The position numbers and the translations under genes were made by a program. DNA of 64,000 nucleotides from the IMG/VR virus record IMGVR_UViG_3300012683_000001, positions 1,406 through 65,405 of that record, one strand, 5' to 3'. Positions within the stretch are counted from its first letter, which is position 1, and the number at the start of each line of letters is the position of its first letter. Origin of the DNA: a virus. The notes beneath the pieces are model-generated. The model did not search any database. It had not been told where the DNA came from and saw only the letters and a list, made by a program, of their open reading frames with translations. This document shows, piece by piece, positions 3,447 to 52,073 of this stretch.

Positions 3447-3792
3447 GTTTCAACCTATTGAACCAACGTTTGAAACTACGCTTACTGATGTAAGTGAGTT
3501 ACGACGTAAGTTTGCAGCACAGGATACTAATGATTGGCCTAGATATAAACTAATCGTTATTAATGCTGTGACTTCAGGTCAACGACTTGAACAACGTATG
3601 GCTAATGCAGAGGTACAAATAGAACATAAGTTAGCAAGGAAAACCGCAGTAGATAATCTTGCAGATGATGTAAATGTGCTAAAGAATTCAGCAGCAGGTA
3701 GAAAAAGTTTTATAAAACGGTGGGGTGGACGGCTATGGACAATTTTTTTAGTGCTATTCACCGCGTATCTTACAAAAAGGTTTGGACGATGA
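3421..3792 (+). CDS. Hypothetical protein with a C-terminal TM segment.
   Basis: 123-aa ORF with C-terminal WTIFLVLFTAYL. Translationally coupled to the next ORF. Confidence 0.35.
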   Translation: MILKKMDPKFQPIEPTFETTLTDVSELRRKFAAQDTNDWPRYKLIVINAVTSGQRLEQRMANAEVQIEHKLARKTAVDNLADDVNVLKNSAAGRKSFIKRWGGRLWTIFLVLFTAYLTKRFGR

Positions 3793-3983
3793 ATAACGAT
3801 ACTGATAAAAAATTGGACCAATTAAGTAAAGATATAAAAGAAGGCCATGCTTCTTTACAGCATCGACATGACCACGCTGATGCTGAAATGAAATATTTAC
3901 ATCATAAAACGGATCGACTTAGAAGTTTTCTTTATACCTTATGGAAGGCTGTTACAGATATTTTTAAGAAAAATCATGAATAG
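3789..3983 (+). CDS. Hypothetical His-rich small protein.
   Basis: ATGA overlap with the upstream stop. The ATG at 3789 is taken as the start rather than the longer 3720 ORF. Confidence 0.3.
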   Translation: MNNDTDKKLDQLSKDIKEGHASLQHRHDHADAEMKYLHHKTDRLRSFLYTLWKAVTDIFKKNHE

Positions 3984-4422
3984 GCTATTTATAGAGATTC
4001 TTATTGCAGCAGCTCTTTTTGGGGCTGGTATTGTATGGTTAGACCGTCATGACGCAGCCCAGCAGGCTATTGGTGAAAAGAATATTAAAGACGCGGATAA
4101 GGCTGGCGTAGAACGCCAGAAAAAGATAGATGACGTAAAGATTGCTGATGCAGGAAGGATAAAAGCCAATGAACTTCAAGAGATTAAAGATCGTTATTCA
4201 GTTGGTCCTGTTAAACTTACTTCTCATATCGTGTGCCACAGCACCGTCCCATTCAGTACCAGCATCGAGACCCAATTACACGGTAGTGAAGGTGGACCCA
4301 CCGTTGACAGGACTGGACACGATGACGTGCATCCAGACATCAGCTACGCCCTTAAAGTGTTTGCCCATCGACTGGATCAACTCAATGCCGAAGCCCGACA
4401 ATTGAATAATGAGACACATTGA
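3976..4422 (+). CDS. i-spanin (Rz-like inner-membrane spanin).
   Basis: N-terminal TM segment LFIEILIAAALFGAGIVWL followed by a charged periplasmic domain. Contains an embedded lipoprotein gene in the +1 frame. Confidence 0.65.
   Translation: MNRLFIEILIAAALFGAGIVWLDRHDAAQQAIGEKNIKDADKAGVERQKKIDDVKIADAGRIKANELQEIKDRYSVGPVKLTSHIVCHSTVPFSTSIETQLHGSEGGPTVDRTGHDDVHPDISYALKVFAHRLDQLNAEARQLNNETH
4169..4405 (+). CDS. o-spanin (Rz1-like outer-membrane lipoprotein), embedded in the i-spanin gene.
   Basis: Signal peptide MNFKRLKIVIQLVLLNLLLISC with lipobox L-I-S-C and a Pro-rich mature part. In a different frame and entirely inside 3976..4422. Confidence 0.65.
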   Translation: MNFKRLKIVIQLVLLNLLLISCATAPSHSVPASRPNYTVVKVDPPLTGLDTMTCIQTSATPLKCLPIDWINSMPKPDN

Positions 4423-16600: not shown

Positions 16601-19479
16601 TAGGGATGACTCAAGAACAAGTTGAGAAACGGTTACAGTCTTACGCTCTGGCTTTACATGAAAAAGAGCGTCGGCATACGTTGTATACGCTGGATGTTCC
16701 ACTGGAGAACACCAAGAAATTTATGCTTGATGGTCAGAATGCTACGGCAGCGGATCATCGAGATCGTATTGTTAAGAAATATAACAGTGATAAAACTATA
16801 AAAGACCCACAGCAACTCGCTAAGGACCGTCAATTATTAGAACAATTACTAGTTCATGCTGATATTGAAGGTCATACCTCTATCAAAAGAGGTCCAAAGA
16901 GTATGTTATTGGATGAGAATTCCTTGGCCTATAACGTCGCAGGCAAATATAGCCGTAATGCCGTCAAGATCATGGAGAACACACTGGCTCAAGATCGCGC
17001 TAAGACGGGTGATTTGATTGATAAAATTATTGATACCCACCAGCAATTAGCTCAAGAGGCCCGTAGACTCAATCAAAAAGCGGGCTATGAGTCTCCGCAG
17101 GCCACCAACTGGATCGGGCTGTACAACTGGAAACATTACATGCCGTTGAAGGGCGATCCCACAGCCCATAAAAATACTGATCGATTTGACTTCGATGGTA
17201 AAGCATTGGGCGGGGCAGTGAGTGAGCGGGCTGAAGCCTTTGGTGGCCGACGGTCAGATGCGGACAATCCATTTATTCAAACCATGGCTGATGCATTAAA
17301 AGCCGGGTTTAGATCAGGACGAGATGGTTTTACTTCAAGACTGGCTAAATTAATTGATGACGGGCATATTCCCGGACGTAAGGTCGCAGAGGTTAAGTTT
17401 GAGGATCGCGCTGATAAATTAGAGAAATACGAGACTCTTAAAAATCATTTCTTTAATTATCAAAAAGATGGAACGATTGAAGTTTATAAAATCAGTACAG
17501 ACACTGCTAAAGGCAAAGCCATGAATGAAGCCATCCGAGGCTTCAACAATGACATCGCTGCACCTTACCGGTTCTTGAATGCTGTTACAGGCGGTATTGG
17601 CCAATTGCATACACGGTTTAACGTCGCCTTTCCGCCTTATAACTTCGTCCGTCATGCGATTACAAGTTCAATGATGGTGGGAATGGAAAACGATCCTATT
17701 TTAGCTGCTAAGTTCGTGGGGTCTATTACCAGTAAAATATTAGATGGAGGGTTGTTTAAAGCAGCACGAGTGGCAAGCTTATTTCATAACAATGACATGG
17801 CAGGAATTGAAAAATTAGCTAATGCCAGTCCTAATGGGTTTTATGGACAACTCCATGACTGGCTGGAGAATGGTGGCCGTGCCACATGGACTCAGGCTCA
17901 TAATATTCAGTCCCAACGGGCAGAGTTAGCAAGAGCCACAGGTCCCAAGGGCTTCATGAGTAGTCTGGATCATGTAAAACAATATTTTAATATCTGGTCT
18001 GATATGTTTGAATTTGCTTCACGTGCCGCAGGGTACGGTGTAATTAAAAATCATTACAACGAATTGGCTAAGGCCAAGGGTGAAGCTGTAGACACCGATG
18101 ACATTAAGCTCAGAGCAACCCAATATACCAAGAATCTGTTTAACTTCAGTACCGTAGGCAAGTACGGGCGTGAAGTAGGTTCTGCGTTTATGTTCCTGCG
18201 TCCCGCGATGACCACAGCGGTACGGTCCATTGATGCCTTATCGCCGTCGTTCTTATCGATGGATAAGGCTGTGAAGCGAATGGTGCAAGAGACTCCTTCT
18301 CTTGGTGATGTGAATACTGTAGCTCGGATACTGGCTAAACAGGTTAAGTCCAAGGAAATAACACCTGAAATCATGGCTCAGGCTAAAGCAAAAGTCGATC
18401 AGAACATCGAGAACTTTAAGAAAGTTCAGCTTGGTAAACAAAAAGCCGCCCGTGTCATGGCTGTAGGCATGATGGGCGCAGGCTATGGCCTATACACCAT
18501 GGCGATGTTAGCGGGTGAAGAAGATGATCAGGGCCGTAATAAAGTCGCCACTGATAACATGTCCATGTGGGCACGGAATATTCGTCTACCCGCACATGGC
18601 ATGTTGGGTAAAGGAAATGATTATTTCCAGATCCCGTGGGGTTGGGGACTCGGGACTTTCGGTGCTTTCGGTGCGCAGATGGCCGCAGCAACTATTGGAG
18701 AGAGTAATCTCAAAGAAGTCTTAGGTAATATGATCCCCATCGCTTTAGAGTCTTATTTCCCACTCCCAGTGGAAAAGTACAGCCCCATTGATCATCCTAT
18801 TGCATTTACCGTGGCATCGATCATGCCCACTTTCGCTCGACCCTTTATTGAATATGGTATGAACGTGGATGCATTCGGTCGGGAAGTCTATACTAACCGT
18901 ATGAATCAGTTCGGTGATGCCTATTCAGGTGGTGAGAACTTACCTGAATTATATGGGGCTGCAACGCGGATGCTTGCAGATGCAACTGGCAATACGGTAA
19001 ATATTTCCCCAAACACGCTCCATTTCTTCACTAATTCTTATATAGATGGGTTGGCACGACTCGCCCATAATACATATGGCACTGCCCTTACGATAACTGG
19101 ACAAAAAGACTTTGATCCTAAGCGCGACGTTGGCGGCATATTGGATTCTTTTATCGGTAAGTCCAGCAGCTACGATGCGCGTGAGTTCGCAGATATCAGG
19201 ACTCAGATCCAACGGCAACAAAATACCTTGGCCATGTATAAGGACCGACCTGAGATGCTTGATAAGTACCTCGATACTCACCCTAACGCCATCATGATCG
19301 ACAATCTCTACAATGCCGTGGTCAATGGTCAATTGAAAACTGTCCAACATCAACTCCGGGTTTTAGAAGATGATACGAGCCAAAGTTCTAAAGATAAGGC
19401 CGATGAAATTACGGATCTTAAATTACAACGAAACTGGCTCATGCGATCATTCATAGATCAGGTACGCGATTATGATTGA
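13681..19479 (+). CDS. Giant internal virion / DNA-ejection protein (1932 aa) with an HExxH zincin-like motif.
   Basis: N-terminal glycine-zipper hydrophobic segment, Pro-rich linker, HEALGH at 15829-15846, and C-terminal hydrophobic segments. The size is typical of ejection proteins. Confidence 0.55.
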   Translation: MPTFSVDAPDGKTYKVDGPSDATHEQIAYAVYLQMHRQPEQPQTSTAGTLLHGAERGVGPMAAGMAGAGYGAGLGTAVLPGIGTVVGGVLGAGIAAWAANKAQDKALESMPKVAKAIGVDEAQREAEAKEHPIASVIGDVAPQLLAMRPSVTNLSRAFSTAEKFAARHGETIEEAAKAINEARKFAAINATIGGVQNAAQQGMSDQPVDWASVGESALLGGLLTKPTRVGSALYGVGERLAPGYAARHPAPPPAPPPKLLTHEPNVFHMGQETEPTPPPPGPPPQLTYQPGAHSVSPEARAFPEQAPQQPNPQQSFPFEWAGPEAPKPPPPFSPVTPPIHQQGELGLNQPKQPEPQPVEAQGDLFNKGPRIRPEVSVPEGPAPTQVTLPFEPGSKMEPTVRGQRKQAVLNFIKQTPATRDEVQTSAGIGSATEVIGHLNTLKREGLIQYDPDAKKWMLKPEEKPSDQPRQKRSGIGDQSTGLRVGMDVPVPQRPPEVTPPLESITRGVVPDTTNVTGNIAREGPAPAPIERDPEHQIIKRRAIIAFHKGNIDENQLMVIKSELDDPNPDFKHLHKMLDAATGAKDYQRLALIRKAFANKAPSKPAEVTKLETDEDRQVREYNEQANAREAKQKTHRKDEEDTALRQGTSTGGMSKDTAQKIVDEHTKNWKNAPKIEVHETRPDNKPEDTTGWHDHGAVHLVADQHANPEELKATLFHEALGHYGLRSKFGDFHNQLMQDIYKSNPAMQEVADRWIKNKGGHEFYKNMTPEQLQARAVDEVLANASEQGPIKNTGIRAAFNRVIAAVRQFIRQHLSGSLKYSDNDVTQILRQAHENVLDGHARKVLGVGDKEDIALKQKTVKEPYVEPKTIEDIEKTRTEKTDKLYKNAYSRPGVIKSVGKMLGSHEGREEMIRLLQNYRRPLDILEKNINAAGGNADIGSFASSLSAKAEMENKNNIQMISTQRANIGKLAQKLGMTQEQVEKRLQSYALALHEKERRHTLYTLDVPLENTKKFMLDGQNATAADHRDRIVKKYNSDKTIKDPQQLAKDRQLLEQLLVHADIEGHTSIKRGPKSMLLDENSLAYNVAGKYSRNAVKIMENTLAQDRAKTGDLIDKIIDTHQQLAQEARRLNQKAGYESPQATNWIGLYNWKHYMPLKGDPTAHKNTDRFDFDGKALGGAVSERAEAFGGRRSDADNPFIQTMADALKAGFRSGRDGFTSRLAKLIDDGHIPGRKVAEVKFEDRADKLEKYETLKNHFFNYQKDGTIEVYKISTDTAKGKAMNEAIRGFNNDIAAPYRFLNAVTGGIGQLHTRFNVAFPPYNFVRHAITSSMMVGMENDPILAAKFVGSITSKILDGGLFKAARVASLFHNNDMAGIEKLANASPNGFYGQLHDWLENGGRATWTQAHNIQSQRAELARATGPKGFMSSLDHVKQYFNIWSDMFEFASRAAGYGVIKNHYNELAKAKGEAVDTDDIKLRATQYTKNLFNFSTVGKYGREVGSAFMFLRPAMTTAVRSIDALSPSFLSMDKAVKRMVQETPSLGDVNTVARILAKQVKSKEITPEIMAQAKAKVDQNIENFKKVQLGKQKAARVMAVGMMGAGYGLYTMAMLAGEEDDQGRNKVATDNMSMWARNIRLPAHGMLGKGNDYFQIPWGWGLGTFGAFGAQMAAATIGESNLKEVLGNMIPIALESYFPLPVEKYSPIDHPIAFTVASIMPTFARPFIEYGMNVDAFGREVYTNRMNQFGDAYSGGENLPELYGAATRMLADATGNTVNISPNTLHFFTNSYIDGLARLAHNTYGTALTITGQKDFDPKRDVGGILDSFIGKSSSYDAREFADIRTQIQRQQNTLAMYKDRPEMLDKYLDTHPNAIMIDNLYNAVVNGQLKTVQHQLRVLEDDTSQSSKDKADEITDLKLQRNWLMRSFIDQVRDYD

Positions 19480-19654: not shown

Positions 19655-19680
19655 CCTGAAAATGGGAACAGCCATTCAGG
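19655..19680 (+). terminator. Hairpin in the convergent intergenic region, possibly a bidirectional terminator.
   Basis: CCTGAAAATGG-gaacag-CCATTCAGG followed by TTCTTG. Confidence 0.3.
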
Positions 19681-22504
19681 TTCTTGCGGAGGGTCCATTG
19701 GAAGGGTCCTTACTAAAATCAAATCTAAATCCAAAGACATCTACAGGAGCCATGTCACTCCGGGCACTCCATGCTTTAGCCATACGAAGTTTGCCATCAA
19801 ATACTAATAATCCTGTGGCATGGGCATCATCTATAAATGCCCGAGTATTAATTTGTGTCTCAGCTAGAAATTTCTTGAAGTCACGCTTAATAATATAGAT
19901 AATGTTGGTGTCTAGATCACCACGAATCATGAGTGAATTACGGGGTTCACTAATAATCTGTCCACCTTTGATTAATAAGGCATGATTGATATAACGATTC
20001 TGAAACTCGCCTAAAATACTTACGTGATCTACTATATTAATTCTAATATTACCCTTGATCTTCATCATGTTTAAAATCACCATACGGTAGATTCGTTCAA
20101 TATCGAAATTAATGATCTCAGCATTCTTAGAGATCTCAGCTCCTGCGAACGCAGCACCTATTAGATTTTCGTAAAATCGAAAGGCGGATGCTTTGCCAAA
20201 ATCTTTTGTAAACCGTTCAATCCATTTATTCCCCATGTCTTTGACCGCGTTGTCACCCATCTTTAAAACTTGCTGCATATAATTTACGCCAGCATGACCA
20301 AAATTAGCTTTTACACCTTCAAAACATCGATTACCTAAGTAGGGGTCATTGATCATAGCTATCGGAGTAGATACCTGAAATTCAACATAGCGGGCCATCT
20401 CACCATCAGGGTTACTTTTATGTGATCGTAATTTATCTTCTAATGATTGATTTTGTGTAGTCATAGCGATCATAGATCCCGACATTTCATGATCTCGCAA
20501 TGCATTTTTGCTGGCTTGCATACGCATCTTGCCGCGTCCACTGGCTACTTGATAAATCATGCGAGCCACATCTTCAGCATCACGAGTAGAGCATTCATCG
20601 AGACCCAACATGATATTTTTTAAGGCCATGTAAATTCCAATGAGGGCGTTCCCGGTGGCTTGGCTTTTATCTCCCACCACGCCCATCTCCACGGGAGAGC
20701 CAAAGATGCTTGTCGCCGCGTAGAGGGCACCCGTCTTTCCTGCACCACTGTCGCCCGTGAAGCCAAAAGTTACGCCGTTCGTTGACATGAAGCGCATAAG
20801 TGGTGAACCAAAAGCACACAGTACACTGAACGCGTGGATCTCCATCGAGGGTGTATTGAGTTCCTGTATAGACTTTTTCCATCCTGAGTATTCTCCATAA
20901 GGCCGTAATAGATTAGCAATGCTATGGATGAGCGGTGAAGCTGCTGCACGCAGAACAATTCCTGTCCGTCTGATTTCGGTACCCCCAATAACAAAAGCTT
21001 CACCATCATCAGTCCACCCCATTTGCATACGCATTTGTTCGGCGGCATCAACACTTAGCATGTGTTGACTCCATTTGACGATGTATTCCATAAAAAGCGC
21101 CGCCTTGGAGGGAGGTGAAAAGGTCAATTCATGTTCATTGAACAACTTGATCATTTCTTCGCGGCTTTGCATAAGTCGTGTCGGAGTCTGGAACTCCCTG
21201 TATTTGTCTTTTGGAAGTCTATATTTCCATTCGATGCAAGCGCCGTCTATGGGATGATAAATACGTTTAGTTGGCCAAATGGGATATTTACTGATTTCTA
21301 TATCGTCCTGATCGATCTTCTCTTTAGTTTTTTTGTCGAAGATCGGTGCATTTTCACACCAGATGCTGCCACTTTCTGACATGTAGAAGGGCCACATGGT
21401 TAACGGGAAGGTGGGTGGCAGGTCTTCGGGTTTGCTCATCAGCCTGATGGGGCTAATGGGAGAGTCTTTCTTGACGTATTCTCCGAGTTCAATGGGGCCA
21501 GTGATCTTCCCCTTGTGATGGCACTTGATACAGAGACCGGGATTGTATTCGTCAAATTTTTCACATCCATAAGCCCATTTGGCTTCAAGGGTGCCGTGGG
21601 CCTTTTTGATGGTGGCTTCTGGCGTGTAGCCGGGGTGGCCTTCGCTCATCAACTGGATGGCAGTCTCGCCATCTAAACAACGAATAGCTACGGATAAACC
21701 CGCACGCCATAAAGGTTCATTAAGTGTCTTTACGTGTTCTAGAATATATTTTATCTGAGCACACCCACTTAATCCCATTAAAGATTTCTCAACTATGACT
21801 GAAAATACATGTTCTACATCAGCTGAGAAGTTAGAAATCGCTTTGGTATCATCGTCTACACCCTTCTGTACATCTTCTAATACGTTCACAGGTGGTATAG
21901 GAAGTTCCCCACCCAAAAACTCTTTCATGTCTTTGAAATCATAAACGGGAATTTCGTCACACCAAAAGCCCGTTTGACGTGGTGGGATCACTTTGTAGTT
22001 GTACGTTTCTGGCGCACGCATGATACGAGCGCGATCAGCGGTTACTGCGGGGTCAATTTTCAGGTATTCAAGGCAGTATGCTTTAAATTTATGAGCATAA
22101 GGTGCCCATACGTTACTTGGGATATCTTCATCAAATATCCAGTAAGCATGAACTCCCGTACCTGAATTAATAATGACAGGTTGTGCTAATTCAACCGTGT
22201 CAATAAATGATACCAGTTCTCCTATCGCATCAGCTTGCGAAGGGTACTTCTTGGGTCCGTCGCCTACATCTAGATCGATGAAGAGTGATCGACAGTAAGC
22301 AGCATCGGCAGCCTTACGGGTATGGCTGTTGAAGCTATGCGGAGCTACGAATACATTGGTGTGGTCCTTTAAAACTTCTATTTGCTTTAGTACTTCAGAG
22401 ACATTTTTTACAAAGTGTTGATCAACGACACCGCTAGAGTTGATTCCTACTACGCAATAAAGTCCCTGTGCTGGTAATAATTTTCCATAGAATTGGTTTT
22501 GCAT
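19676..22504 (-). CDS. DNA primase/helicase (prim-pol N-terminus with a D5-like SF3 NTPase).
   Basis: Walker A FGFTGDSGAGKTG, Zn motif CIKCHHKGK, and an N-terminal AEP-like region. 942 aa. Confidence 0.8.
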   Translation of the reverse strand: MQNQFYGKLLPAQGLYCVVGINSSGVVDQHFVKNVSEVLKQIEVLKDHTNVFVAPHSFNSHTRKAADAAYCRSLFIDLDVGDGPKKYPSQADAIGELVSFIDTVELAQPVIINSGTGVHAYWIFDEDIPSNVWAPYAHKFKAYCLEYLKIDPAVTADRARIMRAPETYNYKVIPPRQTGFWCDEIPVYDFKDMKEFLGGELPIPPVNVLEDVQKGVDDDTKAISNFSADVEHVFSVIVEKSLMGLSGCAQIKYILEHVKTLNEPLWRAGLSVAIRCLDGETAIQLMSEGHPGYTPEATIKKAHGTLEAKWAYGCEKFDEYNPGLCIKCHHKGKITGPIELGEYVKKDSPISPIRLMSKPEDLPPTFPLTMWPFYMSESGSIWCENAPIFDKKTKEKIDQDDIEISKYPIWPTKRIYHPIDGACIEWKYRLPKDKYREFQTPTRLMQSREEMIKLFNEHELTFSPPSKAALFMEYIVKWSQHMLSVDAAEQMRMQMGWTDDGEAFVIGGTEIRRTGIVLRAAASPLIHSIANLLRPYGEYSGWKKSIQELNTPSMEIHAFSVLCAFGSPLMRFMSTNGVTFGFTGDSGAGKTGALYAATSIFGSPVEMGVVGDKSQATGNALIGIYMALKNIMLGLDECSTRDAEDVARMIYQVASGRGKMRMQASKNALRDHEMSGSMIAMTTQNQSLEDKLRSHKSNPDGEMARYVEFQVSTPIAMINDPYLGNRCFEGVKANFGHAGVNYMQQVLKMGDNAVKDMGNKWIERFTKDFGKASAFRFYENLIGAAFAGAEISKNAEIINFDIERIYRMVILNMMKIKGNIRINIVDHVSILGEFQNRYINHALLIKGGQIISEPRNSLMIRGDLDTNIIYIIKRDFKKFLAETQINTRAFIDDAHATGLLVFDGKLRMAKAWSARSDMAPVDVFGFRFDFSKDPSNGPSART

Positions 22505-27509: not shown

Positions 27510-27850
27510 TCATTAAATTTTGGCCAGTCTTTAAATTCTTTAGTCCATATTGCTTTATATTTATCAGCTTCATATTTCTGTTTTTCTTTTTCTATTTCTA
27601 ATCGTCTTTTCATCGCTTCAAGTTCAGTCACTGCCTCTTTCTTAGCTTTAATAGTTTCTTCATTATTTAATACATCCCATAATGCGCTTCCATTTTTATG
27701 TAATTTTTTAAAGAGTAGGAATTCTCTATAAGCGTTTCTGACAGCGACCTTATTATCTTCTAAACCTAAAATAGCTATGATTTGACCGCCAAACCAAAGT
27801 AAATCTTCTTCACTAAATTCTTTAACTACATTCGGCATAAGTGTCTCCAT
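27497..27850 (-). CDS. Hypothetical protein.
   Basis: 117-aa ORF coupled to the polymerase gene. Confidence 0.35.
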   Translation of the reverse strand: METLMPNVVKEFSEEDLLWFGGQIIAILGLEDNKVAVRNAYREFLLFKKLHKNGSALWDVLNNEETIKAKKEAVTELEAMKRRLEIEKEKQKYEADKYKAIWTKEFKDWPKFNDWGF

Positions 27851-29672
27851 GTTTGATTTTTACGGCGATAGGAAGATTCAACGCCCATGGTGGTGGGGTA
27901 ATCATGGTATCTTCCACAAATGCCTTGGCTTCGTCAAGTTGCGCTTTACGCACAACCATCAGCAAGGCATCATGGACCGTCAACGCAATGGGGAACTGAG
28001 GCCGGATCTTAATCATGGCATCGGTCATCACAATGCGAGCCAGCGCTTGCACCACATTCTCGGTCACAACCCCACCCCAAATAGGAAGAGGGCCTTTGCG
28101 AGAATCATGAATCATCTGTCCCTTGTTTTCTCTGAGGTTGCTGTACCTTAAATACAAACTATTAGGCAAAGAAATCCCATAGGGAGTGACAGGTAAAATT
28201 TCATGTTCACCAAAATAAAAAGTATTACCATCAGGTGGCCATGCCATGAGTTGTTTTAATAAATAATTACCATGATCCCAGAGTTTAGTAATTCTTTGGT
28301 TATTTCTACGCCAGCTTTGAACCAAAATCGCGCACTCATTATAATTTATCTCCGCACCACCTTGTTTCAGGGTCATGGTCAATTTAGCGGCACCAGTTCC
28401 GTACCCCAAACCCAACCGCATGGTCTTGCCAATAAACCGTTCTTTTATATCAGCTTTAGTAATTGTTCTGCCGAACGCTAAAGTCGCGTCGTAGCAATAA
28501 ACGTCCTCACCTTTCCTAAACTGCTCTAGTACGTCCTCTTGACCGGCCAACCATGCCAGTATCCGAGCCTCTATCTGTGAGAGGTCGGCGGCAAGTAACG
28601 CGTATCCGGTCGGTGCCCTGATAGACGCTTTAAGCGTTCTTTTCTTCTGATCTCTTTCAGGGAGGTTCTGGAGGTTGATGGCGTCCATTCCCCCCCAACG
28701 TCCGGGGTGAGCGGCATAATATTTGAGCGGGACTGGTAATAGTCCCTTGTTACGTTGGCCCACTTCAATAAACCGATTAATTCGTGCCTCTTCAATGGTG
28801 GATTTGGTGCCGAGGCGAGCGGCACAGAGTTGCTGGATGAATGGGTCAGGGTGTTCCTCCAATGCAATGAATCCGAGGTCTGTCTTGGCAAACGCAGTGA
28901 TGAGTTTGCCGTCTTTGTTGGCCTTGAGAGGGGGTGTGATGCCATAATCTTCTAATACCTCAGCAAATTTAGGGTTACTTGCTAATTTTACTCTAACTTC
29001 TTCCTCAGTTTTACATTCTAGTTTTATCATTAGATCAGATAAAAGCTTAGATTTTTCTAGTTTTATTTCTTTAAGACGAGCCTGTAAAACTGGAACATCA
29101 AGTTCAAGAGTTGGGGAGACAAACATACGAACAGTTTGATCAACCAATTCCATTTCGGACGCCGGGAAATCACTCGCCAGCGTTTTGAAAAGTGAGTATG
29201 TGAGTTCCGTATCCGTTTTACAGTAATCTCCGTATCGTACCAACTCGGTGCTTGTAAAATCCTTAAGTCTTTTTCCGACAGCTTGATAAACTTCGTCCCC
29301 TTTGGTTCCCAAATGATACATTCTTGTGAGGTTGGCAAGAGATGCACTCGTATCGGGTCCATTTAAAGCCCTCGCCATGCAAAGAGTGTCAGCGTAAAAA
29401 GCAGGAGTGATGCCAAAATACCACGCAAGGATCGTTGCATCAAAGAGGGCGTTGTGAGTAATGAGGATGCTCGTGGACCATTCATATGCACATAAAGATT
29501 TCTGGAGTTCCTGCTTAGTACCACTGACCCACACCACAGGTGCAGTGTCACATTTGATACTGTATCCGATGACCTCGAATCGTTCATCTTGTATATACTC
29601 TTCTATAGTTAATTTACTTAAAGAATAATCTTTATCATAAAATGTTTCAAAATCTAGAGTCAGAATGCTCAT
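27822..29672 (-). CDS. DNA polymerase, family A, with a 3'-5' exonuclease domain.
   Basis: Exo I LTLDFETF, motif A LLAADLSQIEARILAWL, motif B RFIGKTMRLGLGYGTG, and motif C TVHDALL. Confidence 0.9.
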   Translation of the reverse strand: MSILTLDFETFYDKDYSLSKLTIEEYIQDERFEVIGYSIKCDTAPVVWVSGTKQELQKSLCAYEWSTSILITHNALFDATILAWYFGITPAFYADTLCMARALNGPDTSASLANLTRMYHLGTKGDEVYQAVGKRLKDFTSTELVRYGDYCKTDTELTYSLFKTLASDFPASEMELVDQTVRMFVSPTLELDVPVLQARLKEIKLEKSKLLSDLMIKLECKTEEEVRVKLASNPKFAEVLEDYGITPPLKANKDGKLITAFAKTDLGFIALEEHPDPFIQQLCAARLGTKSTIEEARINRFIEVGQRNKGLLPVPLKYYAAHPGRWGGMDAINLQNLPERDQKKRTLKASIRAPTGYALLAADLSQIEARILAWLAGQEDVLEQFRKGEDVYCYDATLAFGRTITKADIKERFIGKTMRLGLGYGTGAAKLTMTLKQGGAEINYNECAILVQSWRRNNQRITKLWDHGNYLLKQLMAWPPDGNTFYFGEHEILPVTPYGISLPNSLYLRYSNLRENKGQMIHDSRKGPLPIWGGVVTENVVQALARIVMTDAMIKIRPQFPIALTVHDALLMVVRKAQLDEAKAFVEDTMITPPPWALNLPIAVKIKHGDTYAECS

Positions 29673-30862: not shown

Positions 30863-30877
30863 AGTACTAATTCCTTT

Positions 30878-45546: not shown

Positions 45547-45602
45547 ATCGTTAATAACTGTATTGACTACAATGAGTTAGGAGACGAGGCTCTAGTGTAT
45601 AT

Positions 45603-45631
45603 AGTATAACGCAACTAGACAGCGGTGTCTA
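45603..45631 (-). promoter_or_regulatory. Sigma70-like promoter (-35 TAGACA, 17-bp spacer, -10 TATACT).
   Basis: Read on the - strand. Shares the 16-mer TGTATATAGTATAAC with the 49.42 kb promoter. Confidence 0.5.
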
Positions 45632-47569: not shown

Positions 47570-47942
47570 TCCTATTAACGATGTGGATAAGTTGGACTGT
47601 GGCATGGGCAGAATGCCAAAGGATATTGCCCCAATAAACCAACACGACAAGAATGAAAGCAACCCAGATGATCTTCTTAGTCACGGTTAAATCTCTCCTC
47701 AATCCACTTGTAAGCAATGGCGAGGAGCATCAGTGGCAGCAGCAAATACCAGAGCCACCTTGCACCATCGGGTTCATTGTTCATGTTTTGTCCTTTTGTT
47801 TGCGTAATGTAATCTGTAGTTTCCTTCTCTCCCATACCCGCTGTTCCCAGTAGTCCTGCCAGCCCAATATAAGAAGGAGGATTTGCAGGCTGATTAGAAC
47901 TACGGCGAGTACCTGCAAAGCAATGATGAGTAGTTTAATCAT
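47570..47942 (-). CDS. Cluster of three tiny hydrophobic peptides (about 35-53 aa each), all below the ORF-track size cutoff.
   Basis: MIKLLIIALQVLAVVLISLQILLLILGW... and MNNEPDGARWLWYLLLPLMLLAIAYKW..., with coupled stops and starts. Confidence 0.3.
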
Positions 47943-48946: not shown

Positions 48947-49337
48947 TTAAGCTGTCACGCGCTGCTGCGTTCTTCTGCTCGTCCGTCCACGTGATGGCCG
49001 GAGGGCTCGTCACCGGGTCACGCGGCGGGTTGCTCTTGTCCCACTGCGCCCACCGTGCCGCCAGCTGCTTGGCCTTGGCACGGGCTTTGGCTTTGAGTGC
49101 GAGCTTGCGCTTGGCCTGTGAAGTGGCGTTGGTCACGTGTCCCGTGGCAGGGCCTTTGTTGACCTCGTAGGCGGTGATGGCCTGCGAGTCGGTGGGGTGG
49201 TGGCGGATGTGTCGGCCCAGTTTCTTTTTCTTGTTGTCCTCGGTGGTGAGGAACTGCATCTTGTAGTAGGAGCGGTTCCTTGGGATGACTTTGAGTTTCT
49301 TGGCCCCTTTCGGGGTCTTGACGGTGGCCTCTGGCAT
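48921..49337 (-). CDS. Basic Lys/Ala-rich protein, probably DNA-binding.
   Basis: KRKLALKAKARAKAKQLAARWAQW. An operator and promoter lie upstream. Confidence 0.45.
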   Translation of the reverse strand: MPEATVKTPKGAKKLKVIPRNRSYYKMQFLTTEDNKKKKLGRHIRHHPTDSQAITAYEVNKGPATGHVTNATSQAKRKLALKAKARAKAKQLAARWAQWDKSNPPRDPVTSPPAITWTDEQKNAAARDSLSDTPLAHE

Positions 49338-49365
49338 GGGAGCGGTTCCTTGTGCTGTTAGCGTT

Positions 49366-49379
49366 CCATCACGTGATGG
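49366..49379. promoter_or_regulatory. Palindromic operator copy 4 (CCATCACGTGATGG).
   Basis: Perfect 14-mer followed by GAGTGCTAATAGG. Confidence 0.6.
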
Positions 49380-49427
49380 AGTGCTAATAGGCGTTGGGCT
49401 GGTTTTGGGTAGACCTCCATTGTATAT

Positions 49428-49456
49428 AGTATAACATAACTATATATTTAGAGCAA
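49428..49456 (-). promoter_or_regulatory. Sigma70-like promoter (-35 TTGCTC, 17-bp spacer, -10 TATACT).
   Basis: Read on the - strand. Shares the 16-mer with the 45.6 kb promoter. Confidence 0.5.
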
Positions 49457-49473
49457 CCTTTTAATAAACTATT

Positions 49474-50034
49474 TTATTGAGGCACGTGCTGGTATTCCCA
49501 TCGCCATGGGTCGGTTTCCCACGTCTGATAGAGCGTTGTGCCTCTTTTGTTGGAGGGGTTGGTAAAAGCTTTAGCGGTGGGGTTGTAGCAGTCGATAATG
49601 AGGGCGATCAACGTAGGGCTGATGAACTCGTGCTGGTCGATCAGGGTGGCAAGGGGGGTCCTGAGCTTCGTGTAGGCGTTAAAGATCAATGAGGCGGTAG
49701 CGTGGTCGATGCGGTGTTTAATGCGTGGGTTGAGTGGTTTATAGGTATCCTTGAAGGGTAAATAATTTATTTTACGGTGTGATTTGTATTTTAAGGCCAT
49801 GTAAACCTTATAATTTTTCTTTATAAGTACTTGACTTTCATGGGCACGAATATCCCGAGACAGATCTACTTCGTCTTTTTTACGTTTACCCCTAACGATG
49901 CTGGCTATTGTGCGGTAGCTGACGTTGTATTTCTTTTGTAGTGATTTAAGTGTGGTTTTGTTGGTGGGTGTGCGACGAGCGTATTCATTACGAATGATAC
50001 GTGCAGCGGGTGTACTGATACGTTTGTTACTCAT
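49474..50034 (-). CDS. Early protein with an N-terminal HTH.
   Basis: LQKKYNVSYRTIASIVRG. Confidence 0.45.
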   Translation of the reverse strand: MSNKRISTPAARIIRNEYARRTPTNKTTLKSLQKKYNVSYRTIASIVRGKRKKDEVDLSRDIRAHESQVLIKKNYKVYMALKYKSHRKINYLPFKDTYKPLNPRIKHRIDHATASLIFNAYTKLRTPLATLIDQHEFISPTLIALIIDCYNPTAKAFTNPSNKRGTTLYQTWETDPWRWEYQHVPQ

Positions 50035-50255
50035 AGGGTTTTCCCCTTTTTCTTTTTCTTCTGAGGTCTGCGCCTGAGTGGTTTATGGTAGGCAAGCCTG
50101 AAAAATGTATTTTCAGTAATCCCATATTTATCTAATAATTCATCTAGTGGGATACCGTCGTGTAGATGTTCTGTGAGTATGACTGGGACCAACGCTGAGA
50201 GACGATACCCTTTCTTACTACGTGTATAATACTTTTTATATCCATAGTCGGACAT
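50031..50255 (-). CDS. Small basic HTH protein, first early gene.
   Basis: GIPLDELLDKYGITENTFFRL and a poly-Lys tail. Confidence 0.4.
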   Translation of the reverse strand: MSDYGYKKYYTRSKKGYRLSALVPVILTEHLHDGIPLDELLDKYGITENTFFRLAYHKPLRRRPQKKKKKGKTL

Positions 50256-50285
50256 GAGTTTACCTTTTGCTTAAATGGAGGTTTT

Positions 50286-50433
50286 TGTACGTTTGTACGG
50301 GCCTGTACGACTAAAAATTGATGGTAGTCTAGAATAAAATTGTAGGTTGTGGGTCAGCTATTTGTCAAGTACGTTTTCTCTAAGTCCCTAATAATAATAA
50401 TAATAATTTTATAATAGATAGTAGTAGTAGTAG
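50286..50433. repeat. Repeat cluster: three TGTACG copies at about 9-bp spacing, (TAA)6 at 50389-50407, and (TAG)5 at 50419-50433.
   Basis: Read directly from the sequence. Confidence 0.8.
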
Positions 50434-50677
50434 AGGATTTAGGAGTATTTAATTTGTACGCAGAAATTTCGAGAGTATATGCCTACCCTTTAGACTTTCG
50501 GATAAAATTTTTTCCGTTTTGCACGACACATGCCGAACCCCAAAAACCCTTCTGGGAATACATATACTCTTCGGATTTCTTGGTACAATTCAAATTGATC
50601 TAATTAACTGCGTAAACGATGTAATAATCAATCACTTAGGTAGTATATTCGTACAGCATTACCATCAATTTTTAATC
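50311..50677. repeat. Long-range inverted repeat: TAAAAATTGATGGTA at 50312-50326 pairs with TACCATCAATTTTTA at 50660-50674.
   Basis: 15-bp perfect inverted match bracketing the microsatellites. Confidence 0.7.
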
Positions 50678-50697
50678 TAATTTTGTTCCATTTTTAC

Positions 50698-50779
50698 CAT
50701 CTAAGCAAACGGTAATAGCATTCCATCACACGATGGAGTGTTAATACCTTTGATGTTCACATCATCTAAGCAAACGGTA
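50698..50779. repeat. Direct repeats CATCTAAGCAAACGGTA at 50698-50714 and 50763-50779.
   Basis: 17-bp perfect direct repeat. The first copy abuts operator copy 5. The second is followed by a CACGTG box. Confidence 0.7.
50723..50736. promoter_or_regulatory. Palindromic operator copy 5 (CCATCACACGATGG, imperfect).
   Basis: Flanked by TAATAGCATT on the 5' side and AGTGTTAATACC on the 3' side. Confidence 0.5.
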
Positions 50780-50860
50780 TTGCCACGTGCTATCGTGCGC
50801 ACGCACACAAATCGGGAACTGGTTTCAAGCAGCCGCGTGGACTGTAATAACATTCCATCA

Positions 50861-50882
50861 CGTGATGGAATGGTAAAGACAA
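50861..50882. promoter_or_regulatory. Palindromic operator copy 6, a perfect 22-bp palindrome CATTCCATCACGTGATGGAATG.
   Basis: Its reverse complement equals itself. Confidence 0.65.
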
Positions 50883-50910
50883 AAAAACCCGCCTTACGGC
50901 GGGTTTAATA
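50881..50910 (-). terminator. Rho-independent terminator after 50926..51573.
   Basis: On the - strand, ACCCGCCGTAAGGCGGGT followed by TTTTTTT. It is A-rich on the other side and could work in both directions. Confidence 0.6.
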
Positions 50911-50925
50911 GTTGGATGGTGAGGC

Positions 50926-51573
50926 TTACTTGGTCGCGTAGGCGGCGCTGATCCGCTTGGTGACCGTGGCAAGCAAGGTTTCGAGTTCTACCTTGTCCTT
51001 GCGGTTCCGCTTGCAGATGGCATCAACGTGCTGAGCCGTGAACTGATCCGTGGTTGCCGGATCGCCGCGCTCCCGCTTGGCGTCATTGGCCATGCGTTCC
51101 CACCGGTCGTAGCGTGTCGAGAAGAAGGAACTGCACACTTTCCGCATGTCCCGCACTTTCCCGCGCAGCGTGGCGATCTGATCCGGCTTCCCGGCCAGCT
51201 TCTGCGCGTCCTCTTTCGAGAGTCCGATGGCCCATGCCGCAGTCAACACATGCGCGCCCTTGTCATGGACTCGAATCGTGCCGTCGGCCTGACTGAGTAC
51301 ATCGTAACGCGTGTCCACCTGTCCGGGCAGTGCGCACCAGTAGTTCTCAACTGCACTGCGGAATGCAGCCTTAGCCTCCGGGTCGGCTGCTTCGATCTTG
51401 GTCACACCATCCGGAAGCTTGGTCGTGATAGTGAACACTTTCAGCACCTTGCACTCGCCGATCCTCTCGGACAGGTGTTGTTCCGTTTGCAGCATGTCGT
51501 GCGCCAGTGCGCCGATGCGCTGCGACACGGGCAGTACGTTGCGTACCGCGTCTGCGATTACCTTGTTAATCAT
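50926..51573 (-). CDS. Hypothetical protein (215 aa) in a GC-rich island.
   Basis: Visibly higher GC than its neighbours. Has its own operator upstream and a terminator downstream. Confidence 0.45.
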   Translation of the reverse strand: MINKVIADAVRNVLPVSQRIGALAHDMLQTEQHLSERIGECKVLKVFTITTKLPDGVTKIEAADPEAKAAFRSAVENYWCALPGQVDTRYDVLSQADGTIRVHDKGAHVLTAAWAIGLSKEDAQKLAGKPDQIATLRGKVRDMRKVCSSFFSTRYDRWERMANDAKRERGDPATTDQFTAQHVDAICKRNRKDKVELETLLATVTKRISAAYATK

Positions 51574-51681: not shown

Positions 51682-52073
51682 CTAACCCCACAGGTACCCT
51701 ATGCACCGCTTTTGATGAAAGCATGCTTGCCCATTACGCCGTCTTGGTTCTGGTCATACGATGCTGAAAATACAGAGAGGGCCCCGTCATGTTTAAAGAT
51801 ACTATCTACCCACTCTATTTTATAAAGTACGGGTAGCTGCCGGTAGCTACTTAATATCATTTAAAATACTATCTACCCAACTAAATTCTTTTAAAGTATT
51901 CTAGAATTTTCTCGTCACACCCCCCTCTCAAGTCCTATGAAAATAGCCCCCTCAGCACAAGCTGGATAATTTTGGAAAATTTCTTCGAGTAATTCCCCTC
52001 TTTTCATCACTTTCTCATACTTCCCTAATTCCTTTCATTGCAAATTATTGATTAATTGATCTATATTCGGAAG

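Follow-up and report, generated by a model that had tools for sequence, protein, structure and literature searches.

A conserved noncoding module in an uncultivated soil phage that may combine an early promoter region with a replication origin

We analyzed a stretch of 64,000 nucleotides of the virus record IMGVR_UViG_3300012683_000001 (positions 1,406 to 65,405; hereafter, the window), which belongs to an uncultivated soil phage with a lytic-type genome of ~71 kb that assembles as a circle. We focused on the largest noncoding gap of the window (50256-50925), hereafter the hub. The hub is a conserved cis-regulatory module made of multiple parts, whose promoter and terminator functions are readable from its sequence. 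We infer that this early promoter region is combined with a replication origin, and we regard this interpretation as probable. The initial annotation of this DNA had proposed, with reservations, an origin or early-control region, and the comparison with related phages supports and strengthens this proposal. The features listed in that annotation were all recovered at the coordinates given or a few bases away, and they are not random. The same annotation had also suggested a site-specific recombination locus, for which we found nothing in support.

Results

Conservation of the hub in related phages

We compared the hub with a set of 80 related loci, which are coded with L-numbers (L037 is IMGVR_UViG_3300042542_001504). 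A blastn search of the hub against these relatives returned nothing because its conservation is too patchy for BLAST, and nucleotide searches against GenBank phages, near and distant, revealed no resemblance. A profile of the hub's core was found in 22 distinct relatives in addition to the window, with a constant orientation relative to the large terminase gene (TerL), and five loci with sufficient flanking sequence that were missed by the profile contain the same box arrays. Taking the profile matches and these further loci together, the hub is therefore present in 22/22 loci with at least 3.6 kb of upstream flank, as counted among TerL-related contigs (TerL 73-79% identical).

These hubs share a common layout. 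Starting from the early-gene side, a phage-specific palindrome is followed by a strong leftward promoter, three to four tandem forward boxes 8-11 bp apart and an IHF-consensus motif. An AT-only simple-repeat tract, two forward boxes, a module made of a T-tract, GAG and GGTAGGG, and a spacer of ~65-100 nt come next. The mirror image of the module then appears with two reverse boxes, followed by a second IHF-consensus motif and by more boxes. Toward the terminase side, the layout ends with the palindrome again, a GC-rich block of alternating purines and pyrimidines that terminates in RAACTGGNNTC, and the terminator of a gene that we refer to as the 215-aa family.

The boxes consist of a single TGTNNN hexamer in each phage, with 5-14 copies per hub (7-14 in the relatives), oriented forward on the left and reverse on the right. 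The hexamer differs between loci: TGTTCC was found in 17 loci, TGTTCT in six, TGTGCC in two and TGTGTC in one, and TGTACG in the window and L037. Box type never differs between the two arms of a hub, and double changes were observed in 11/16 aligned pairs. The boxes appear to behave as protein sites of changing specificity.

Boxes, core and AT tract of the window

The elements of the window that bear most directly on this interpretation are the following.

50284-50309, + strand: outer-left box array TTTGTACG, TTTGTACG, CCTGTACG, three forward boxes
50339-50368, - strand: early promoter TTGACA, 18-nt spacer, TACAAT, leftward into the early genes
50389-50433: AT-only tract with (TAA)6, TTTTATAATAGA and (TAG)5, candidate DNA-unwinding element
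50437-50601, + strand: conserved core, 165 nt (nhmmer profile, E = 1.7e-18)
50626-50638, + strand: IHF consensus site AATCAATCACTTA, a perfect match to WATCAANNNNTTR, 25 nt to the right of the core
50650-50655, - strand: outer-right reverse box CGTACA

Three TGTACG copies at about 9-bp spacing had been reported in the initial annotation. These copies start at 50286, 50294 and 50304, with spacings of 8 and 10 bp, but they are only part of a set of six iterons in two orientations. The copies that had gone unnoticed are located at 50455 (+) and, as CGTACA, at 50650, with a degenerate GGTACA at 50582. The hub contains five perfect TGTACG boxes and one degenerate box; four, all forward, lie to the left of the core spacer, and two, both reverse, to its right. 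Five of the 22 TGTACG copies of the window fall within these 670 bp (Poisson p = 1.4e-6).

The core presents an inverted repeat with arms of 42 nt at 50447-50488 and 50554-50595 that are 74% complementary. It includes a forward box (50453-50460) and the degenerate reverse box (50582-50587), and its 65-nt spacer carries CCCCAAAAA at 50538-50546. A 15-bp inverted repeat with arms separated by about 330 bp had previously been thought to bracket the region. This repeat is real, extending to 18 nt with one mismatch and arms 333 nt apart, but the true symmetric element is the missed repeat with 42-nt arms at 50447-50595. Matches to WATCAANNNNTTR, conserved as TAAGTNNTTGATT, were found beside the core in 17/23 loci, relative to a background of 0.012 per 250 nt. 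DnaA boxes (TTATCCACA with at most one mismatch) were not found in the hub, and the 22 DnaA boxes of the window are scattered elsewhere. We also considered an open reading frame (ORF) of 49 aa at 50454-50603 (+), with AGGAG 8 nt before a TTG start. This candidate was rejected: it is not called by gene callers and it lies inside the core, which is conserved as DNA symmetry and not as a reading frame.

The AT tract contains two trinucleotide microsatellites that had been noted from the outset and that we recovered as (TAA)6.3 at 50389-50407 and (TAG)5 at 50419-50433; these are the only period-3 arrays of the 64 kb (TRF). At lengths of 40, 60 and 100 bp, no DNA of the window is less stable than this tract, which is about 4 standard deviations from the mean and begins 21 bp upstream of the -35 element of the promoter. 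Likewise, in 23/23 loci, no other 40-mer of the locus is as unstable as the tract located just left of the core (z from 3.5 to 5.9), and we conclude that (TAA)6/(TAG)5 is the local form of a conserved AT element. This element is usually composed of simple repeats, with a unit that varies by lineage (TAG, TTA, GATA, GAA or TA). The expectation that microsatellite length might vary between isolates was not borne out, since six contigs from other samples match without gaps over the shared region (among these six tract-spanning contigs, L005 has a single mismatch); the six represent one near-clonal population, which makes this a weak test of length variation.

The TTGACA-18-TACAAT promoter, which was absent from the initial list of features, is the sole sigma-70 match of at least 11/12 in the 64-kb window, and it points into the genes encoding the 74-aa and 186-aa proteins. 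Its inferred transcription start is near 50332, and from the position of this promoter it follows that the three tandem boxes lie in the 5' untranslated region (UTR) of the early transcript. Leftward promoters matching 11-12/12 positions were also found at the left end of the relatives' hubs (12/12 in L041; 11/12 in L077 and L083). Judging from these matches, the hub has a sigma-70 early promoter function directed into the early operon. The early-control part of the initial annotation is further supported by the presence, inside the hub, of both the best sigma-70 match of the window and the strong terminator of the upstream unit.

A candidate reader of the boxes

The protein that we propose as reader of the boxes is encoded far from the hub.

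19676-22504, - strand: fused primase-helicase of 942 aa, proposed reader of the boxes

This protein matches DUF927 and the NCBIfam family Cch1 (SCCmec), and its helicase region matches PDB 5DGK (E = 3e-8). We modeled its last 243 residues with a pLDDT of 64 overall and of 70-90 over the last ~100 ordered residues. Using this C-terminal model, Foldseek retrieved Cch (5DGK) and SaPIbov1 Rep (8TCH) at E ~3e-4, followed by winged-helix DNA-binding domains; a profile of the helicase C-terminal domain retrieved nothing from the PDB sequences. These matches and models assign the primase-helicase to the SaPI Rep/SCCmec Cch family, with a predicted winged-helix tail. SaPI Rep is a self-loading helicase, sometimes fused to a primase, whose C-terminal winged helix reads iterons (PMC9371898). 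SaPI origins have an AT-rich centre that melts; their iterons (5-6 nt, 6-12 in number) are placed on both of its sides, two or more per side, and the two sides point in opposite directions (PMC9371898).

Three other candidates were evaluated and rejected. The small terminases of L081 and L078 are 86% identical and their boxes differ, whereas L081 and L033 share the same box with small terminases that are only 55% identical. A zinc-ribbon early protein encoded near the hub of several relatives belongs to a family that does not sort by box type. Finally, the 74-aa and 186-aa proteins are absent from L037 although its box is also TGTACG. The 942-aa primase-helicase stands as the remaining strong candidate.

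Proposed mechanism and its main alternative

As read from the sequence, the host-type near-consensus promoter (50368-50339, - strand) launches the leftward early operon. We propose that the primase-helicase would recognize the boxes through its C-terminal winged-helix domain and would assemble on the two opposed box sets with the help of host IHF-type bending, and the adjacent AT tract would then be opened. The promoter would fire away from the AT tract, and negative supercoiling behind the polymerase should favor melting. The 18-bp palindromes found in the hub would represent a separate, genome-wide motif that is probably read by a different phage factor.

The cumulative GC skew of the whole genome, which had been suggested as a check, is lowest at 47,865, from where a plateau extends to about 49,000, and highest at 18,732. 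The left edge of the hub is 2.4 kb from this minimum and ~1.3 kb from the end of the plateau. The minimum is compatible with an origin near the hub, but it cannot discriminate between interpretations because GC skew also follows gene orientation. We observed that the leftward genes at 49001-50255 (including those encoding the 138-, 186- and 74-aa proteins) have a + strand GC skew of +0.17 to +0.32, which is opposite in sign to most leftward genes; the skew minimum is therefore found at 47.9-49 kb and not at the orientation switch.

Besides the ambiguity of the skew, several observations weigh against the origin interpretation. In SaPIs the origin is adjacent to rep, but here 28 kb separate the helicase gene from the hub. 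The symmetry axis of the hub is the core spacer, and the AT tract is located to one side, between the outer and inner left box sets. The window contains only five perfect boxes, and its inner arms have a single box each and not a pair. In addition, the C-terminal model of the helicase is of moderate quality (pLDDT 64) and its TM-scores are low, and the 60 helicase loci and the box-bearing loci have only three contigs in common (two with the same box type and one untyped).

Among the alternatives, the one that survives best is that the hub controls transcription without any replication start, which we consider rather unlikely. The boxes would be operators for a phage regulator that shuts off or boosts early transcription, and the AT tract would be a promoter-upstream element. 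It is true that the boxes adjoin the strongest promoter, that the first downstream genes encode small helix-turn-helix-like proteins unique to this phage, in keeping with a phage-specific box, and that cassettes of a promoter plus a palindrome mark a region rich in regulatory DNA. However, the distance and order of boxes and promoter vary: the boxes are upstream of the promoter in L041, L077 and L083, and inside the 5' UTR in the window. Across relatives, their positions range from ~100 nt upstream of the -35 element to +46, and such a wide range does not suit a classical operator. The boxes also span 400-700 bp on both sides of a core that lacks a promoter. Moreover, L037 shares TGTACG without homologues of the 74-aa and 186-aa proteins, and one small early protein family is common to many relatives without being sorted by box type.

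Palindromes, repeats and the family-conserved block

The hub contains the following additional elements.

50260-50278, - strand: third, inverted copy CCATTTAAGCAAAAGGTAA of the 19-nt repeat, with 2 mismatches, spanning the ribosome-binding region of the 74-aa gene
50309-50326: left arm GACTAAAAATTGATGGTA of the 18-nt inverted repeat, containing AAATTGAT
50660-50677: right arm TACCATCAATTTTTAATC of the 18-nt inverted repeat
50697-50715 and 50762-50780, + strand: direct repeats of 17-19 nt (CATCTAAGCAAACGGTA at 50698 and 50763), flanking palindrome copy 1
50721-50738: palindrome copy 1, TTCCATCACACGATGGAG, with the extended palindrome at 50709-50747
50781-50829, + strand: family-conserved block with GCCACGTGC, an alternating purine-pyrimidine run GTGCGCACGCACACA (50795-50809) and the invariant box GAACTGGTTTC (50816-50826)
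50853-50870: palindrome copy 2, perfect TTCCATCACGTGATGGAA, within 50848-50875 with its extended arms
50885-50906, - strand: intrinsic terminator of the 215-aa gene, with a 9-pair stem and a T7 run

The two palindromes, which had been described as operator copies, are indeed present at 50721-50738 and 50853-50870. The 18-bp palindrome TTCCATCAnnTGATGGAA was found in nine copies in the window, relative to 0.47 expected (positions 30876, 37178, 39444, 45531, 48634, 49364, 50721, 50853 and 51662). The copies have extended flanks (TTAGCA...TGCTAA), and most are located 12-34 nt upstream of the start codons of leftward genes. This distribution indicates a genome-wide regulatory system and not one of the hub alone. 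A dimeric phage factor could bind the palindromes, or they could form hairpins in 5' UTRs. Searching viral contigs for the exact and degenerate palindrome yielded single, chance-level copies only. Relatives present their own palindromes in the corresponding positions, such as TTTCCACGTGTACGTGGAAA in L052 and TCCCACGCATGCGTGGGA in L077. We also observed two leftward promoters at 45596-45631 and 49421-49452 (- strand; P2 and P3) that share an identical 15-mer, GTTATACTATATACA, and the -10 element TATACT; in both cases, a palindrome lies ~45 nt further on, ahead of a gene. The sequence TATGTTATACTTATA is present at the hubs of L052 and L050.

The two 17-bp direct repeats noted in the initial annotation were confirmed at 50698 and 50763, and a third, inverted copy had been overlooked; in total, the 19-nt repeat has three matches in the window relative to 0.02 expected. 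The motif AAATTGAT/ATCAATTT occurs six times in the window, three of them in the hub. The hub of L037 (2745-3330) is the sole one among the relatives to present the TGTACG box of the window, in nine copies. In L037, the direct-repeat core CATCTAAGCAAAC flanks the right palindrome as it does in the window, and the palindrome itself is different (TCCTGACAnTGTCAGGA). No homologue of the 74-aa or 186-aa proteins was found in L037. This pattern implies that the box and the direct repeat travel together and that the palindrome does not.

An extra CACGTG box had been listed as part of the hub. The corresponding sequence GCCACGTGC is present at 50782-50790, but it is not an operator and constitutes the left edge of the family-conserved block; CACGTG is not enriched in the window (14 copies in 64 kb). 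At the other end of the block, the RAACTGGNNTC box is invariant across the family. It is restricted to the + strand, and its enrichment is ~100-fold over the 450 nt to the right of the core, immediately ahead of the terminator of the 215-aa-family gene. A single copy is present in the window (50816-50826), and several relatives have three to five tandem copies with a period of 15-16 bp (L055, 1282-1340; L047, 6160-6220; L037, 3453-3498). This box is a candidate packaging signal. The terminator that had been assigned to the hub is present at 50885-50906 on the - strand, and a comparable hairpin with an A/T run was observed at the same place in the 17 relatives inspected.

Packaging, RNA and mobile-element interpretations

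The conservation of this block raises a further interpretation, which we consider improbable: a role in packaging or as a genome end, either for the entire hub or for the conserved block on its right. This DNA would be recognized by the terminase, would form a terminal-repeat region, or would act as a pause signal during DNA entry, separating a first-entering gene from the rest of the genome. The invariance of RAACTGGNNTC, which several relatives have in three to five tandem copies, is in line with how conserved the small terminase is; the hub is 1.2-3.5 kb from the terminase genes, and contigs of relatives tend to end shortly before the small terminase gene. The IHF sites would also be in keeping with packaging, as lambda cosB has IHF sites. 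However, the phage-specific boxes are independent of small-terminase relatedness (L081/L078 and L081/L033), and the contig ends accumulate ~1.1 kb from the hub, at poly-C runs, where assemblies are commonly interrupted. The genome also assembles as a circle, and a least-stable AT tract is not known as a feature of packaging.

The contig ends deserve a separate description. They are found within ~100 nt of the start of the small terminase gene (window 51900-52055) and include the starts of L013, L020, L022, L024, L044, L059, L076 and others. They coincide with poly-C blocks (ACACCCCCCG; CACACCCCCC in the window) and with a conserved late-promoter-like motif, TTTGGTWCCATGC-N-TATATA. A 54.6-kb contig of a metagenome-assembled genome (MAG; JBAXRQ010000003.1) ends at the same place. 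The pile-up could be an artefact of assembly at homopolymers, or it could mark the place where variable DNA gives way to conserved DNA or where the genome really ends.

It is also very unlikely that the 171-nt region at 50436-50606 folds into a long hairpin and acts as a structured noncoding RNA. Both strands fold far better than shuffled sequences (z = -4.3 for + and -4.8 for -), and the element is kept in 22 relatives with a fixed orientation. Yet the element has no Rfam match, the consensus fold pairs the boxes only, and the mismatches between arms outside the boxes show no wobble bias (33 G-U-compatible on +, 32 on - and 115 transversions). The A-tract is not inverted between the arms in L083, and no convincing promoter or terminator brackets the element. 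We therefore disfavor this interpretation on the evidence of these alignments and folds. Lastly, that the hub contains chance repeats or a small non-autonomous mobile element, whose 18-nt arms would bracket about 370 bp, is extremely unlikely: there is no target-site duplication, neither 15-nt arm core is found elsewhere in the window (other genomes were searched with the whole 670-bp hub only), the layout is syntenic in all relatives and all motif counts exceed those of shuffled sequences.

Genome setting and neighboring genes

The window is a rotated copy of a circularized MEGAHIT contig (ENA ERZ27253174) of 70,927 nt with a 141-nt end overlap, which yields a genome of 70,786 bp. Near-identical contigs were recovered from several other metagenome samples. 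The structural genes are encoded on the + strand from 52056 to the end of the window and on to 19479, and the early and DNA-metabolism genes are encoded on the - strand from 50255 down to 19676. The latter include a family-A DNA polymerase (PolA, 27822-29672), an SNF2 helicase, a PD-(D/E)XK nuclease and the 942-aa DUF927 primase-helicase; we scanned the 20 largest - strand ORFs and detected no phage RNA polymerase. TerL is ~50% identical to its nearest homologues in GenBank phages (including the pelagiphages HTVC027P and HTVC023P and phage DSL-LC04) and 73-79% identical in about 600 IMG/VR contigs. Inferring the host from MAGs yielded mixed taxa, which most likely reflect binning noise.

HTVC027P and DSL-LC04, two distant relatives that have been cultured, differ in gene layout and lack the core element. 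Clusters of repeated 7-mers were observed upstream of their large terminase genes: seven copies of AAGCTTG at ~1750-2350 in HTVC027P (L450) and eight copies of CTGCAGC at ~3750-4300 in DSL-LC04 (L449). These clusters might be analogous site arrays.

The hub is indeed noncoding, as initially proposed, and independent assemblies likewise have no called gene in 50256-50925. The 74-aa gene, with its ATG at 50255, is the first early gene, and the 186-aa gene is also downstream of the hub promoter. Their products resemble small DNA-binding (helix-turn-helix-like) proteins and are unique to this phage, with no relatives anywhere. In a word-indexed search, the 74-, 186- and 215-aa proteins each retrieved only themselves, and the small proteins flanking the hub have no match in Pfam, PHROGs, PADLOC or NCBIfam. 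In 13 relatives, a small zinc-ribbon protein (CxxC...CxxCGE...VVPMHKSNY) is encoded beside the hub, 0.2-1.9 kb left of the core (L018, L028, L047, L050, L052, L055, L057, L072, L077, L080, L083, L085 and L087). No such protein was found among the ORFs within 2.6 kb left of the core of the window.

On the terminase side, the hub is bordered by the following gene.

50926-51573, - strand: gene of 215 aa, a fast-evolving family that always adjoins the hub on the terminase side

This region is unusually GC-rich (about 0.53 vs 0.46 for the window). The gene had seemed foreign because of this GC-content and because the indexed search returned no homologue, but a foreign origin was ruled out when an exhaustive search found a small family at the same place in relatives. 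A profile of this family detected members in 20/80 related loci, on the - strand and 0.3-3 kb upstream of the small terminase gene. Many loci present a long, low-GC noncoding gap directly downstream of the family member (400-820 bp in eight of them). Two paralogues were observed in L041, L057, L077 and L089, and they are on opposite strands in L077 and L089. The single-sequence structure model of the 215-aa protein was unusable (pLDDT 44). Between this gene and the terminase genes, at 51800-51900, the direct repeat ATACTATCTACCCA is present in two copies 68 nt apart. Each copy (- strand) is located ~20 nt before an ATG, one of which starts a called gene of 53 aa. This pair may be a duplicated translation-start or promoter region.

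Discussion

The elements of the hub can be assembled into a broader interpretation, which we put forward only tentatively. The hub may be a composite module in which a symmetric PriRep-type helicase loading platform, made of phage-specific boxes fused to family-invariant T-tract/GGTAGGG modules, would lie beside a microsatellite unwinding element with a unit that drifts between lineages; it would be insulated by two copies of a phage-specific palindrome and coupled to RAACTGGNNTC as a possible packaging signal. In that case, ~700 bp would unite the start of replication, early transcription and the recognition of DNA for packaging. If this were true, the hub would be a previously undescribed cis-element of a large family of uncultivated phages, considering that about 600 IMG/VR contigs contain a close TerL relative. 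Such a module, if it is a conserved origin, would offer a cis-element that can be tested and used to build replicons, and the box types (TGTTCC, TGTTCT, TGTGCC, TGTGTC and TGTACG) would allow assigning initiator specificity. It would also allow the study of self-loading helicases of the SaPI Rep/Cch type in a full-size phage. Microsatellites, which are odd in a single phage genome, become interpretable once positional homologues are compared.

Several known systems resemble parts of the hub. The left end of phage T7 has a long noncoding stretch and strong early promoters before the first genes, and its origin consists of a promoter and an AT-rich segment. T7 differs in that it has no iteron arrays, and the window has no phage RNA polymerase among the - strand ORFs scanned. 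In T4-type phages, Arbiol et al. 2010 reportedly described the PeSL as an early promoter and a conserved palindrome that precede fast-evolving small genes. The P2 and P3 cassettes of the window (GTTATACTATATACA and a palindrome) are similar to PeSLs, and this likeness concerns the palindromes and not the boxes or the core. Unlike in PeSLs, the palindromes of the window are perfect, phage-specific dyads of 18-20 bp, which fit a dimeric protein site at least as well.

In the satellite phage P4, two separated cis regions, ori and crr, are needed, and the alpha primase-helicase binds octamer iterons through a C-terminal winged helix. The P4 iteron, which we give tentatively as TGTTCACC, resembles the TGTTCC and TGTTCT boxes of the relatives and differs from the TGTACG box of the window. 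Origins of iteron plasmids and of lambda (pSC101, R6K gamma and ori-lambda; for a review, see Rajewska et al. 2012, a reference of PMC7145576) similarly bring together repeated initiator sites, an AT-rich unwinding element and IHF sites, and they can be activated by transcription nearby. These origins use tandem direct repeats of 17-22 bp that are read by a dedicated Rep or O protein, whereas the hub has opposed boxes of 6-8 bp. The only 17-nt repeat of the hub consists of two direct copies 65 nt apart, which is not a classical iteron array.

The closest resemblance is to the origins of SaPIs. Both systems have short iterons (5-8 nt) in opposed sets, an AT-rich region and a helicase with a C-terminal winged helix, which in the window is a predicted one and belongs to a putative initiator. 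The number of iterons also agrees with the SaPI range (about 6-12), with five perfect and one degenerate in the window and 7-14 in the relatives, and the primase and Rep of SaPI5 are fused, as in the 942-aa protein of the window. Unlike in SaPIs, the hub is 28 kb from the helicase gene and not immediately downstream of rep, and its symmetry is centered on a conserved spacer (~65-100 nt), to one side of which the AT tract is located. The hub also contains additional IHF-consensus sites, T-tract/GGTAGGG modules, an AACTGG box and flanking palindromes, and it belongs to a lytic-type phage of ~71 kb and not to a satellite. Our comparison suggests that, although it is not adjacent to rep and corresponds only loosely to an AT-centered arrangement, the hub would work like a SaPI-type origin.

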